Source: a virus (taxonomy: Duplodnaviria; Heunggongvirae; Uroviricota; Caudoviricetes). Taken from it: a stretch of DNA of 64,000 nt. The notes below the pieces were generated by a model. That model did no database searches. It saw only the letters and a program-made list of their open reading frames with translations, and was not told the origin of the DNA. The stretch lies in IMG/VR virus record IMGVR_UViG_2571042690_000019. The stretch is one strand, 5' to 3'. A program made the translations under genes and the position numbers. Positions 14,225 through 54,420 of this stretch are shown here, piece by piece. How positions within the stretch are numbered: the first letter of the stretch is position 1; each line of letters begins with the position of its first letter.

Positions 14225-14400
14225 GCAGCCTCCTTTGACTAAGTTAAGGAGCTACCGCGTGAGGTTCCAATCTCAATGGCGGTAGCACTGACTGGGTTGG
14301 AACTACCGGCGTCAAAGGGAACCGGCCTGCCTTTCGGCAGCCCAGCCAGCACTACCATTGATCTCTGAGCTAAACGCTAAGTATGGCTGTGCGATGGCAT
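14225..14400 (-). ncRNA. candidate c4-like antisense RNA / structured leader (immI module 1)
   Basis: Non-coding stretch with nested hairpins (gctaccgc...gcggtagc; ggcctgcc-tttc-ggcagcc) and GGTTCCAA / TTGGAAC complementary heptamers. Coordinates approximate. Confidence 0.25.
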
Positions 14401-14404
14401 GACA

Positions 14405-14427
14405 CAAAAAAAGACGCGTTCGGCGTC
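14405..14427 (-). terminator. rho-independent terminator (minus strand)
   Basis: Minus-strand RNA gacgccgaacgcgtc followed by U7. Confidence 0.5.
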
Positions 14428-14469
14428 TGTGTCGCCTTTGACATTATCCGGGGTTCCAATCCCGGCACC

Positions 14470-14486
14470 CGTTTTTCTAAGGTGCC
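14470..14486. promoter_or_regulatory. C1-operator-like variant upstream of immI module 1
   Basis: ccgtttttctaaggtgc, TTTTCTAAGG variant of the recurring core. Confidence 0.3.
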
Positions 14487-37728: not shown

Positions 37729-38120
37729 TACCAGCGAGACAAACGAACAACATGTTTCACTTTTGCGATCCACTGTCCGCGATAACTATTGATTACGGCC
37801 TGTGCCAGCTTCAAATTGGCTTCAAAATCAGCCTTACTACCATCAGACTCCACCAGCATTCCTCCATCTATTTCTGGTAAACATAGATAATCCTGCTCAA
37901 CCTGCAGCGGCATTGATGGCTCTCTGAATGGGGTTACTTGCTCTGCTTTCCAGCGAAATCTAACCCTTATCCCCCTGGTGGTCATTACTAGATAGCCTGT
38001 TATAGTGCTTTTATGGCCCACATCAGTACGCGTGGCATTGCATGACACGATCTTACAGTTAGCGATAGACCACTCCATATTGGTGGCCTGTTGAGTGCTT
38101 AATTTGGTAGTCCCGTACAT
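37728..38120 (-). CDS. hypothetical protein
   Basis: 130-aa ORF; start abuts upstream stop. Confidence 0.4.
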   Translation of the reverse strand: MYGTTKLSTQQATNMEWSIANCKIVSCNATRTDVGHKSTITGYLVMTTRGIRVRFRWKAEQVTPFREPSMPLQVEQDYLCLPEIDGGMLVESDGSKADFEANLKLAQAVINSYRGQWIAKVKHVVRLSRW

Positions 38121-38695
38121 CAGAAAGCCTCCCAGTCAGTCGCGATAATATCCACACCAGTTGCAAACCAGTCTGTCTGCGCCTGTAAATCCCCATTCAT
38201 CATTACCAGGCGAGGCATCACCATCACATCGCACCCTTCCACAATATCGAATGCCTCTTCCGGCAAGAATTCGAAGAGCTTTTCTTTGCTGCCAATACTG
38301 CCACGGAACATCGATATATAGCTCCCTTTGGGCCATGATGTCCGCCGGGCATCAAGCCCTTTCATCATCCAGTAAAAAGCCGAGGAAAAAGGGATATTCT
38401 TTTTGCCAATGATTACATTATTCGCTTCTGTGTACTTCAGGAACTTAACTAACCTTACCATTGACTCGGATAACGCAACGTATGGCTCATGATTGATTGC
38501 TGACACGCTTACACCGTGCAATCCAACGCTTACCACTGTCATATCGCCGCTCTGTGCGGTTTCGATATTGACGCCTTTGCGAACTAATGAGGCGTAAAGT
38601 TCCTCTCGCTTTTGGGTCCAGCGTTCCCGCTTCCCTATGAAGTCACTCAAAATGAGATCTTCTTCTGCATATGCGTTATCGTTCGCCATTAACAT
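38120..38695 (-). CDS. hypothetical protein, possibly with DUF2829-like segment
   Basis: 191 aa; AFYWMMKGLDARRTSWPKGSYISM loosely resembles the motif in 30033..30473. Confidence 0.4.
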   Translation of the reverse strand: MLMANDNAYAEEDLILSDFIGKRERWTQKREELYASLVRKGVNIETAQSGDMTVVSVGLHGVSVSAINHEPYVALSESMVRLVKFLKYTEANNVIIGKKNIPFSSAFYWMMKGLDARRTSWPKGSYISMFRGSIGSKEKLFEFLPEEAFDIVEGCDVMVMPRLVMMNGDLQAQTDWFATGVDIIATDWEAF

Positions 38696-39149: not shown

Positions 39150-39225
39150 TGGTGGCCCCTACCGGACTTGAACCGGTGACCGTGCGATTATGAGTCGCCA
39201 GCTCTAACCACTGAGCTAAGGGGCC
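39150..39225 (-). tRNA. tRNA with CAU anticodon (Ile2-lysidine type, or Met)
   Basis: Minus-strand GGCCCCTTAGCTCAGTGGTTAGAGCTGGCGACTCATAATCGC...GGTTCAAGTCCGGTAGGGGCCACCA; close to E. coli ileX from memory. Confidence 0.85.
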
Positions 39226-39236
39226 AATTAGTTTTT

Positions 39237-39350
39237 ATTTTCGACGCCTGAGATTCTTCGCTACTTGTTCTACTCCGTATACGATCACAAGCAGAAATAG
39301 CAAAGACCATCCAGGGTTCTTATCAATATACGTCCAAAAATCCATCATGA
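39237..39350 (-). CDS. tiny membrane peptide (about 37 aa)
   Basis: MMDFWTYIDKNPGWSLLFLLVIVYGVEQVAKNLRRRK; below ORF-track cutoff. Confidence 0.25.
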
Positions 39351-39509
39351 GTTCCTGAACGCAGCTTTAATAATCGGCAATAGCAATACCACAGCTACTG
39401 AAACCAGTGCCCCATCAGCCAACACCGACATCACTTTGCTGGTGAAATCCACCAGCACGGACAAAACGAGAAAACCAATGGCGCACGCAATACGCGCCTT
39501 GCCAATCAT
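39346..39509 (-). CDS. small membrane peptide (54 aa)
   Basis: MIGKARIACAIGFLVLSVLVDFTSKVMSVLADGALVSVAVVLLLPIIKAAFRNS; ATG overlaps the TerB-like stop. Confidence 0.3.
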
Positions 39510-39943
39510 TACAGATAATCTTCCACACGAAGGCCCAAACGACGGCCTACTTCTTCCAGTACTTTGTGTTCTGCTGGCTCGATTTCACCGTCCGCTTCTG
39601 CAATCGTCAGCATGTTAACGAATACTTCTTCCGCTTCTTTTGGATCATTTTTGATATCTTCAATTTCGCGAAGGATATTCATGCGACCAACACGGAAACC
39701 AGCTTCCAGTTGCTCAGTAAAACGGGTGATTGTTGCGGTAATTTCGTTGCCAAAATGACTTAAGCGAGGATTAGAGCGGACAAGCTGATCAAGTTTCGCT
39801 GTTTCTTCCTTTTCGATTTCACCATCTGCGGCAGACACCAACAAACAGCCACCGATAATGGCCTCCATCAGATCGCGATTCTCAACCCTTTTCAGCTCTA
39901 CTTTTGCTGAAGCGACTTTCTTACCGAAAAATTTACCGAACAT
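39509..39943 (-). CDS. TerB-like tellurite-resistance-family protein (TciA-like)
   Basis: 144 aa with the paired-helix acidic pattern of TerB (LLVSAADGEIEKEE...LTIAEADGEIEPAE). Confidence 0.55.
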   Translation of the reverse strand: MFGKFFGKKVASAKVELKRVENRDLMEAIIGGCLLVSAADGEIEKEETAKLDQLVRSNPRLSHFGNEITATITRFTEQLEAGFRVGRMNILREIEDIKNDPKEAEEVFVNMLTIAEADGEIEPAEHKVLEEVGRRLGLRVEDYL

Positions 39944-40098
39944 TGGTTATCCCTCAATAAACATGACGTATTTATTAGGTTGCGGTGCCTGGTGCCTCCA
40001 GGTGACGTTAACCAGTTAACAATTAACGCCGGGATGTTTGACTTAACCACTAAGGAGGATTGTTTTAACTGTTCCGCGTGCGCATAGCCGCATTCACC

Positions 40099-40208
40099 GC
40101 AATGGTAAGAGCACTTGGCTGGCTGGGCGGCGATGACGCCTGTACGCATTTGGTGATCCGGTTCTGCTTCCGGCATTCGCTTAATTAGCCAAATACTCTT
40201 AACGTTGC
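40099..40208. repeat. long-stem hairpin element (family copy 2)
   Basis: Arms gcaatggtaagagcacttgg / ccaaatactcttaacgttgc, about 20 bp with a few mismatches, about 70-nt interior. Confidence 0.4.
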
Positions 40209-40210
40209 AC

Positions 40211-40297
40211 TGGCGGAGAGTAATGGAATCGAACCATCATCGCTTGCGCAATGGGACGGTTTTCAAGACCGTTTGAGCACCATGCTCCCTACTCTCC
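40211..40297 (-). tRNA. non-canonical class-II tRNA-like gene, anticodon UGA (Ser-like)
   Basis: 7-bp acceptor GGAGAGT/ACTCTCC, discriminator G, CCA; anticodon arm ACGGT-CTTGAAA-ACCGT; long variable arm with GCAA tetraloop; T arm TTCGATT; D arm unusually short. Confidence 0.35.
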
Positions 40298-40399
40298 AGT
40301 GATTGTGATGGTCGGTGCTGAACTCCGACACAGGGTTGTAGCAAGCCCCGCAAAGCGCGCACTACTGTAGTTGCGGCACATCAGCCTGTGCATTCACCA

Positions 40400-40488
40400 C
40401 AATGTTGAGAACACTGGTTGTCACGCTGCAACGCAACATTTATTCGTAGATTGGGATATGACCCCGTTACGCCAGTGTTCTCAACGTT
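40400..40488. repeat. long-stem hairpin element (family copy 3)
   Basis: Arms caatgttgagaacactgg / ccagtgttctcaacgtt, 17 bp; interior about 54 nt. Confidence 0.4.
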
Positions 40489-40630
40489 ATAGTGCCGGTT
40501 ACGGTTCCGGCCAGGCCTCTTCCTCAACGGGGTGTTCTCCATACGGACTACCGTTTATTGGTCGTTCCTGCGGTTTATGTTGTGAAGCCAGATGCTTATC
40601 TTCTGGTTGCTTCAAAGAGCTGCACTTCAT

Positions 40631-40698
40631 CACAACGGTAAGAGCACTCGATGCATTTAAGCCAAGCCCCATAAGGGAGAATGCCCTTACCTGTTGTG
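40631..40698. repeat. long-stem hairpin element (family copy 4)
   Basis: Arms cacaacggtaagagca / tgcccttacctgttgtg with a one-base bulge. Confidence 0.4.
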
Positions 40699-40826
40699 TT
40701 GTGATGACCGGTGCTGATCTCCGGCTTGCGGTTATTTCAGACTCTCACGGGCGTTTAATTGCCCCGCCGAACAGCTCTTTTCCGCAATAGCTGCAATGTC
40801 TTTCGCGCATCAGCCTGCGCATTCAT

Positions 40827-40913
40827 CACAACGGTAAGGGTACTTCGTAGGGATTCGAACCCTCTGCCAAGCTCGGCGATCTCCGACGTCGCAAAATACC
40901 CTTACCTGTTGTG
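40827..40913. repeat. long-stem hairpin / tRNA-like remnant (family copy 5)
   Basis: Arms cacaacggtaagggta / tacccttacctgttgtg; interior has a T-arm-like gggattcgaaccc and a D-arm-like hairpin but no anticodon arm; abuts tRNA-Thr. Confidence 0.4.
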
Positions 40914-40914
40914 C

Positions 40915-40990
40915 TGGTGCCGATTAACGGACTCGAACCGCTGACATCCTGCTTACAAGGCAGGCGCTCTACCAACTGAGCTAAACCGGC
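40915..40990 (-). tRNA. tRNA-Thr (anticodon UGU)
   Basis: Minus-strand GCCGGTTTAGCTCAGTTGGTAGAGCGCCTGCCTTGTAAGCAGG...GGTTCGAGTCCGTTAATCGGCACCA. Confidence 0.9.
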
Positions 40991-40992
40991 AT

Positions 40993-41068
40993 TGGCGATG
41001 GTGGATGGATTTGAACCATCGACCCGTTGATTAACAGTCAACCGCTCTAACCGCTGAGCTACACCATC
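40993..41068 (-). tRNA. tRNA-Asn (anticodon GUU)
   Basis: Minus-strand GATGGTGTAGCTCAGCGGTTAGAGCGGTTGACTGTTAATCAAC...GGTTCAAATCCATCCACCATCGCCA. Confidence 0.9.
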
Positions 41069-44766: not shown

Positions 44767-45027
44767 TTAAAGGGTTATTTTATCCTGTTCGGATAATTCT
44801 TTGATTGTCTTGTCGATTGCGATCAACCAACCTTCATAGGTTAAATCATCAACAAGTTCTACCAACTTATCATCGGTGTGAGGAAAGTATATCCAGCTCC
44901 AGTTCGCAGGGTTTTCTGCTTTTCGCAGCGTAAAAACCTTCTTGTATCGGTGGAACTCAAGGATATACCCCTTCGATATGGAATATTCCTTTAGGTCTTC
45001 GACCGTAAACCTACGATTCTTTCGCAT
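44767..45027 (-). CDS. hypothetical small protein
   Basis: 86-aa ORF. Confidence 0.4.
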   Translation of the reverse strand: MRKNRRFTVEDLKEYSISKGYILEFHRYKKVFTLRKAENPANWSWIYFPHTDDKLVELVDDLTYEGWLIAIDKTIKELSEQDKITL

Positions 45028-54139: not shown

Positions 54140-54420
54140 ACGGCCTCACTAACAGGTTTAACAACCTGCTACCCGCTGTCAAACAGGTGGCAGGACGTGA
54201 CAGGGTTGACAGACTGGCGTTAGTGAAACCAGCAGGCCGAAGCCTCCCCATCACGCCCCACCATAATTCGGGCGTAACGTGGTTTACGGACACAAAAATA
54301 CCGCAATATCGGAAATCTGCGGTTGTCCGCACTAACATTCAGGCTGTCAAACCTGGTCGCAGAATTTGCTACGACGGCATGAATATAAGCCTGAAAACAT
54401 GGAAGATCAACTAAAAATTT
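54140..54420 (-). ncRNA. candidate c4-like antisense RNA / structured leader (immI module 2)
   Basis: Non-coding stretch with TTGACAG and complementary CTGTCAA heptamers at 54177, 54206 and 54344. Coordinates approximate. Confidence 0.25.

Follow-up and report, generated by a model that had tools for sequence, protein, structure and literature searches.

A tRNA-Ser(UGA) gene of a P1/D6-like plasmid prophage and its probable 8/4 cloverleaf

The 87 nt on the minus strand at 40211-40297 of the window (the whole 64,000-nt stretch of viral DNA analyzed here) are a genuine, already annotated tRNA-Ser gene of a P1/D6-like plasmid prophage. Judged by comparison with related sequences, the odd look of this tRNA is that of a rare published fold, with eight pairs in the acceptor stem, four pairs in the T stem, and a compact tRNA-Sec-like D hairpin. 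We consider it likely that the gene specifies a functional phage-borne tRNA-Ser(UGA) in this 8/4 cloverleaf, which would read UCA and probably the other UCN codons. Novelty is low because the gene was already annotated and the fold class already published; as a gene it is routine, tRNA-Ser having been called by public pipelines, and the interpretive point is the 8/4 assignment, which would put a little-studied noncanonical tRNA architecture into easily manipulated E. coli phages.

The gene, its annotation, and its layout

ARAGORN returned a tRNA-Ser with anticodon tga on the minus strand at exactly 40211-40297, where the minus-strand sequence is GGAGAGUAGGGAGCAUGGUGCUCAAACGGUCUUGAAAACCGUCCCAUUGCGCAAGCGAUGAUGGUUCGAUUCCAUUACUCUCCGCCA. 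The first-pass annotation of this DNA had left the choice between a phage tRNA-Ser and a tRNA mimic, and had proposed to run tRNA predictors, with the lack of any call to count against the gene; the ARAGORN run gave a call. The tRNA-Ser option is supported by this call, by public annotation, and by compensatory changes across many phage lineages, and we found no support for a mimic. The identical 87 nt are annotated as tRNA-Ser in RefSeq (E. coli plasmid NZ_CP028585.2), the copy in phage D6 (MF356679, 97.7% identical) is a tRNA-Ser in its GenBank record with the remark "AA not called by tRNAscan-SE", and the 91-nt copy in phage rV5 (DQ832317, ~89% identical) is recorded as a tRNA-Ser "discovered using ARAGON". 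The P7 copy (98.9% identical) is unannotated in the P7 record. The general tRNA model of Rfam (RF00005) made no call at this locus at its gathering threshold, against 66-75 bits for the three neighboring tRNAs. At relaxed thresholds, the best Rfam match of the locus was tRNA-Sec (RF01852; 45.1 bits, cut-off 47), and matches to sX4, snoRNA, and plastid families were set aside as chance.

The sequence features attributed to this element by the first-pass annotation are present in the 87 nt: the clean anticodon arm with the Ser-type anticodon UGA (also reported by ARAGORN), the 6-bp variable arm with its GCAA loop, the TTCGATT T loop, the discriminator G, and the encoded CCA (Table 1). Two of its structural readings had to be revised. 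The acceptor stem, given as 7 bp, is better read as 8 bp with A8 pairing U76, and the D arm, described as very short, is untruncated, with a stem of 4-5 bp, a loop of 3-5 nt, and the GG kept. The 87-nt sequence folds better than 200 of 200 shuffles (z = -3.24). Its plain minimum-free-energy fold is not a cloverleaf, and was for that reason not used for structure.

Table 1 Window coordinates of the tRNA-Ser(UGA) gene, its parts as laid out in the 8/4 reading, and nearby features (window coordinate = 40298 - tRNA position; tRNA position 76 is 65 in conventional numbering)
Feature	Window coordinates	Strand	tRNA positions	Basis or remark
tRNA-Ser(UGA) gene, 87 nt, CCA encoded	40211-40297	-		ARAGORN; RefSeq-annotated identical copy; annotated D6 copy
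Acceptor 5′ strand, 8 nt, GGAGAGUA, including A8	40290-40297	-	1-8	Layout; pair 8:76 in relatives
D hairpin GAGCA-UGG-UGCUC (5 bp with 3-nt loop, or 4 bp with AUGGU)	40275-40287	-	11-23	Fold; family
Anticodon arm ACGGU-CUUGAAA-ACCGU	40256-40272	-	26-42	Sequence; ARAGORN; family
Anticodon UGA	40263-40265	-	33-35	Plus strand reads TCA
Variable arm CAUUGC-GCAA-GCGAUG, 6 bp	40238-40253	-	45-60	Layout; family pairing
T arm AUGG-UUCGAUU-CCAU, 4-bp stem	40223-40237	-	61-75	Sequence; family
Acceptor 3′ strand UACUCUCC	40215-40222	-	76-83	
Discriminator G84	40214	-	84	
Encoded CCA	40211-40213	-		
Conserved noncoding core, 65 nt, 24 nt 3′ of tRNA-Ser	40122-40186	-		Comparison with lambda and rV5-like phages
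Trailer copies of the repeated module	40089-40116, 40389-40416, 40622-40649, 40818-40845	-		
tRNA-Asn(GUU)	40993-41068	-		ARAGORN; Rfam tRNA, 74.5 bits
tRNA-Thr(UGU)	40915-40990	-		ARAGORN; Rfam tRNA, 72.9 bits
TerB-family gene	39509-39943	-		Minus-strand cluster, after tRNA-Ser
DUF3927 gene	39345-39509	-		Minus-strand cluster
tRNA with anticodon CAU	39150-39225	-		Downstream cluster member; ARAGORN; Rfam

Among 60 distinct relatives of the window tRNA, the D stem has 5 bp in 27, 4 bp in 21, 3 bp in eight, and 6 bp in four, and the commonest D loop is AUGG (29/60). The discriminator is G in 51 of the 60 and U in eight. A sixth anticodon-stem pair is impossible in the window tRNA (A25, C43), and is possible in only 11 of the 60 relatives.

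Acceptor and T stems: 8/4 versus 7/5

The 6-bp variable stem claims a G without which the T stem cannot reach 5 bp; the T stem is thus left with 4 bp, and the pair A8-U76 brings the acceptor stem to 8 bp. The G in question, G60, is the last base of the variable arm and the base that would serve as conventional position 49 in a 7/5 fold. In the single sequence U76 has two possible partners, A8 and G60, so that the case for 8/4 depends on covariation in the family. We assembled 181 distinct tRNA-Ser(UGA) sequences from two pattern scans of IMG/VR and from phage loci. In the wider of the two scans, the anticodon and T loops could lie 24-40 nt apart (25 nt in the window's type). Positions 8, 49, and 65 (conventional numbering, used below for these pairs) were placed by anchors alone, i.e., the 7-bp acceptor pairing, the anticodon loop, and the T loop.

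The canonical sequences and those of the window's type differ at these positions. In canonical, U8-bearing tRNA-Ser(UGA) (n = 111), 8:65 was Watson-Crick in four sequences and 49:65 in 95; in the non-U8 sequences with a compact D arm, the window's type (n = 61), 8:65 was Watson-Crick in 50 (39 A-U, 11 G-C) and 49:65 in only 18, most of the class having G-U there (36). U8 is universal in canonical tRNAs. In the anchor-padded alignment of the 60 relatives, position 8 is A or G and never U, and pairs 8:65 as A-U in 38, G-C in 11, and G-U in three, the other eight relatives being without a standard 8:65 pair. Mutual information between positions 8 and 65 was 0.37 bit, a value reached in 0 of 20,000 permutations. 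An independent set from a scan of bacterial genomes (n = 26) gave the same picture, with 8:65 Watson-Crick in 23 sequences and 49:65 in eight.

The partner of position 49 is decisive. Against position 65, the 60 relatives have G-U in 35, G-C in 10, A-U in five, C-G in two, U-A in one, and other combinations in seven. Against the foot of the variable stem, position 49 forms C-G in 41, U-A in seven, U-G in two, A-U and G-C in one each, and other combinations in eight, and this pair is Watson-Crick in 43 of the 47 linker-free sequences. Since position 49 pairs with the variable-stem foot, the variable stem would abut a 4-bp T stem, and position 65 would be free for position 8.

A functional tRNA-Ser with an ordinary 7/5 fold would have a G49-U65 wobble closing its 5-bp T stem, A8 without a partner, and a D loop that is simply short. 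This reading is quite unlikely on these counts, although not every comparison separates it from the 8/4 fold. The ARAGORN output is that of an ordinary tRNA-Ser, whole-structure pair counts do not separate the two folds, and, if any standard pair is counted, 49:65 does as well (53/60) as 8:65 (52/60); a few relatives (A8/A65/U49 or A8/G65/C49) favor 7/5. What separates the two folds is how often each pair is Watson-Crick rather than wobble, and which base position 49 pairs with. Besides being seldom Watson-Crick (18/61), the 49:65 pair shows both-sided changes in three sequences vs. 11 for 8:65, and A49 stands opposite C65, a mismatch, in four phage and eight bacterial sequences. Position 49 covaries with the variable-stem foot instead, and in the window's class position 8 is A or G in step with position 65. 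In the window sequence, the 7/5 fold is also the less stable by 3.4 kcal/mol (-29.6 vs. -33.0 kcal/mol for the 8/4 cloverleaf, the unconstrained optimum being -33.6 kcal/mol).

The 8/4 fold has precedents. Mukai et al. (2017, Nucleic Acids Res, PMC5389517) found allo-tRNA and (8/4) tRNA-Ser classes as near-misses of tRNA-Sec searches, located (8/4) tRNA-Ser in bacteriophage tRNA clusters, and showed that tRNAs of the 8/4 and 9/3 types fold and are processed in E. coli, where they are also aminoacylated and delivered through EF-Tu, the 8/4 form being serylated. The window tRNA resembles this (8/4) tRNA-Ser in its 12-bp acceptor/T branch, split 8 + 4 on family-level evidence, in its long variable arm, G73 discriminator (the class has G73 or U73), and serine anticodon, and in its setting in a phage tRNA cluster, and it too is a near-miss of the tRNA-Sec covariance model. 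The likeness of the tRNA-Sec-like D arm is approximate, since the window loop has 3 or 5 nt (UGG or AUGGU) and the class a tetraloop of ~4 nt. It departs from allo-tRNAs generally, whose anticodon stem exceeds 5 bp (PMC5389517), in having an ordinary 5-bp anticodon stem, a trait that does not define the 8/4 class. The published phage (8/4) examples are marine and alpha-proteobacterial (PMC5389517), and in the literature and records searched we found none that places the tRNA-Ser of enterobacterial P1-like phages or rV5 in the 8/4 class. 8/4-type compact-D tRNA-Ser(UGA) with G8:C65 and A49 also occurs in assemblies of cyanobacteria, Saprospiraceae, Acidobacteria, Desulfobacterales, and Geobacteraceae (loci L297, L306, L313, L322, and others).

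With canonical tRNA-Ser(UGA) of the E. coli serT type, the window tRNA shares the loop CUUGAAA, a class II variable arm, G73, G1-C72, G2-C71, and A3-U70, and presumably the same synthetase and codons. The 111 canonical examples differ from it in having U8, a D stem of 3-4 bp closing an 8-11 nt loop, a 5-bp T stem with Watson-Crick 49:65, and one unpaired base separating the variable stem from the T stem, none of which is found in the window tRNA. Relative to RF00005, the locus scores below the gathering cut-off, carries A8, and would have G-U at 49:65. tRNA-Sec (selC) shares with it the extended acceptor stem, the compact D hairpin, and the long variable arm, but has a 13-bp branch and the anticodon UCA, which reads the stop codon UGA, whereas the window tRNA has 12 bp and the anticodon UGA, which reads the serine codon UCA. 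Given the 12-bp branch, the sense anticodon, and the score under the cut-off, the window gene is not tRNA-Sec, and no selenocysteine machinery is implied. The 8/4 fold would explain the trouble that general tRNA models and isotype callers have with this gene.

The tRNA-Ser genes of D6 and rV5 are orthologues of the window gene, both followed by the same 65-nt core, and neither record gives a fold. The rV5 gene has one extra D-loop base and a variable arm that is both longer and different; U1-A72 is found in some relatives.

Probable function and selection on the fold

E. coli SerRS identifies tRNA-Ser by the long variable arm, G73, G1-C72, G2-C71, and A3-U70, and all of these are kept in the window tRNA. 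Codon usage in the 38 long ORFs of the window is compatible with a supply role of the phage tRNAs. UCA is used 12.0 times per 1000 codons and makes up 20% of Ser codons, ACA makes up 29% of Thr codons, and AUA 19% of Ile codons, compared with rough values of 7 per 1000 (12% of Ser), 13%, and 7%, respectively, in E. coli K-12; the phage Ser(UGA), Thr(UGU), and Ile(CAU) tRNAs match exactly these A-ending codons. The assignment of the last of these to isoleucine follows P7 and RefSeq, in which the CAU tRNA is a tRNA-Ile (tRNA-Met by ARAGORN). It is presumably lysidine-modified and reads AUA, with which the AUA share among the Ile codons of the window fits.

The tRNA-Asn and tRNA-Thr genes (together 40915-41068) lie upstream of tRNA-Ser in the same minus-strand cluster. 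We propose that tRNA-Ser would be transcribed together with the adjacent minus-strand Asn, Thr, and Ile tRNAs, and would be processed by RNase P and 3′ exonucleases, the CCA being encoded. Host SerRS would then charge it through the long variable arm, G73, and the first three acceptor pairs. The length of acceptor plus T stem read by EF-Tu is 12 bp, and EF-Tu should accept the window tRNA since the two stems still total 12 bp. The charged tRNA would supplement the scarce host tRNA-Ser(UGA) in a phage that uses UCA ~1.6 times as much as E. coli. A promoter scan found nothing above chance near tRNA-Ser, and the window lacks the operator consensus of the P1 C1 repressor. A suppressor or recoding tRNA was rejected, the anticodon UGA reading the serine codon UCA. 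In the window tRNA, s4U8 is impossible, and E. coli phages would allow tests of the processing, modification, and charging of 8/4 tRNAs, and of any benefit they give against tRNA-directed defenses.

A tRNA-shaped RNA with a mainly nontranslational role, either as a decoy or resistant substitute facing host tRNA-targeting nucleases or as an operon processing or regulatory element, might account for the recurrence of the odd architecture in many unrelated phages, for its movement as a cassette with a conserved noncoding core, and for the presence, ~1.5 kb away, of a gene whose product has a Tad2-like anti-Thoeris domain. We regard such a role as very unlikely. All SerRS identity features and the host-type loop CUUGAAA are kept, and a pure decoy needs neither; the same fold is found in bacterial genomes, e.g., in cyanobacteria; and 8/4 tRNAs do translate in E. 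coli (PMC5389517).

The gene with the Tad2-like domain is a 191-aa ORF in the same orientation downstream of tRNA-Ser (38120-38695, minus strand; Tad2-like domain of Thoeris anti-defense, Pfam E = 1.1e-9), and RefSeq names its product Tad2 family protein. As to nucleases, we know of no defense nuclease that targets tRNA-Ser.

All helices of the proposed functional 8/4 tRNA show compensatory change. Across the 60 distinct relatives, 98.5-98.9% of cells are paired, compared with 68% in shuffles and 39-54% with slid partners, where the 100% pairing of the D and variable stems is so by construction because these stems were aligned by maximal pairing. Both-sided changes occur in 28-29 of 32-33 pairs. 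The covariation score is 0.68-0.69, compared with 0.18 in shuffles and at most 0.10 with slid partners; the relatives are phylogenetically linked (26 clusters at 80% identity, with both types of 8:65 pair inside the largest cluster), so that shuffle statistics overstate the significance. By helix, compensatory change was found in 8/8 pairs of the acceptor stem, 6/6 of the D stem, 5/5 of the anticodon stem, 7/9 of the variable stem, and 2/4 of the T stem, the remaining two T-stem pairs being invariant G-C. At short distances, C-G in the variable stem has become U-A in L175, one of the near-identical P1-like copies, and U-G there has become U-A in the close variant L171, and rV5 relatives have U1-A72 for G1-C72 and G5-C68 for G5-U68. 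The D6 copy has one D-stem mismatch.

A decaying pseudo-tRNA, left in an array of degenerate tRNA-like units, is extremely improbable. The surrounding 800 nt do contain four repeated long-stem units, one with a relic T arm, the gene is absent from P1, and the Rfam tRNA model fails. But every helix covaries across distant phages, and close variants keep their stems through compensatory changes, the variable stem changing by pairs even among near-identical P1-like copies, which rules out a relic in decay. The anticodon and T loops also remain intact, as do the discriminator and CCA.

Distribution, conserved core, and repeat array

The window is a P1/P7/D6-like plasmid prophage, with two C4 antisense RNAs and the late-promoter activator Lpa. 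Of the C4 loci (14275-14485, 54183-54388 (-); 77.1 and 68.8 bits), one lies beside an isrK match and one beside c4-a1b1 target sites, a pattern suggestive of two immI-type immunity regions within the 64 kb. The stretch with tRNA-Ser is 100% identical to several ~92-kb E. coli plasmids, and a 201-nt stretch around the gene matched 731 PLSDB plasmids, along with 811 of the 5,426 complete E. coli genomes searched (~15%). Carriers of the gene include P7, D6, and rV5-like phages, and Klebsiella phages of the T5-like and T4-like groups have more distant tRNA-Ser genes that align over their full length at 72-77% identity. P1 has no tRNA-Ser at the matching locus, where ARAGORN returned Asn and Thr tRNAs only; its sequence (L251:718-868) diverges exactly over 40114-40303 of the window, i.e., tRNA-Ser and the core 3′ of it, and has ~150 nt of unrelated sequence instead. 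As P1 does well without it, the tRNA-Ser gene is dispensable.

The 65-nt core matches lambda 44866-44930, in the part of the late leader that lies between orf-64 and S, at 98.5% identity. It recurs at ~88% identity directly after the tRNA-Ser of rV5-like phages and at 85% in Salmonella siphovirus ST1UNAM, and it is coinherited with tRNA-Ser in P7, D6, and rV5-like phages. It has no Rfam match and no conserved ORF. Its hairpin GGCG-UCAUCGC-CGCC is GUCG...CGAC in rV5, a compensatory change. The IMG/VR scan placed the core in at least 106 distinct contexts with only 28 core variants, with tRNA-Ser upstream in 25. An ORF over the core (39898-40176, 92 aa) was rejected, having no Pfam hit, no annotation in RefSeq, and a frame that is broken in rV5 and ST1UNAM. 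At 39981-40101 (minus strand), in the leader of the TerB-family gene, there is a subthreshold Rfam match to the STnc100 sRNA (40.1 bits, cut-off 47, E = 8e-7); the corresponding region of lambda has no STnc100 match.

Four copies of a repeated module lie on the minus strand at 40089-40916, each made of a long-stem unit between a leader CGGAGATCAGCACCGGTCATCACAAC and a trailer AAGTGCTCTTACCGTTGTGATGAATGCG that can pair with each other. One of the units is filled by tRNA-Ser and the core. Many enterobacterial phages unrelated to one another (lambdoid, Stx, Klebsiella, and FelixO1-like) carry scattered copies of the trailer. P1 is also without 40649-40821 of the window, which is one repeat unit, apparently lost through recombination between trailer copies. 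The boundary of presence and absence in P1, the repeat array, and the scattered trailer together suggest cassette exchange. More speculatively, tRNA-Ser may be the cargo of a small exchangeable cassette (tRNA plus 65-nt structured core, bounded by leader and trailer) that moves between the unrelated P7/D6-like plasmid prophages and rV5-like lytic phages, with the core alone in lambda, and in which the phage-typical 8/4 architecture would itself be adaptive; we think this unlikely as a whole. If true, the 8/4 form could, e.g., render the phage tRNA-Ser insensitive to a tRNA-targeting nuclease or modification enzyme, of the host or of a rival, whose recognition depends on U8, the D loop, or the elbow.

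In rV5-like phages (rV5 itself, L002:2690-2788, and L007 and L008:489-587), the stretch from the core to tRNA-Thr holds a 99-nt element that ARAGORN reported as "tRNA-???", giving its anticodon as four bases (atcc); it may be another degenerate or unusual tRNA-like unit. In the window, a tRNA-like relic or small structured RNA lies immediately 3′ of tRNA-Thr (40832-40908, minus strand), for which ARAGORN and Rfam gave no call. It has a 15-bp terminal stem (GGUAAGGGUAUUUUG/CGAAGUACCCUUACC) around a perfect T arm (GGGUUCGAAUCCC) and a fold z-score of -4.35, and its P1 equivalent is annotated within the opposite-strand ORF plp.
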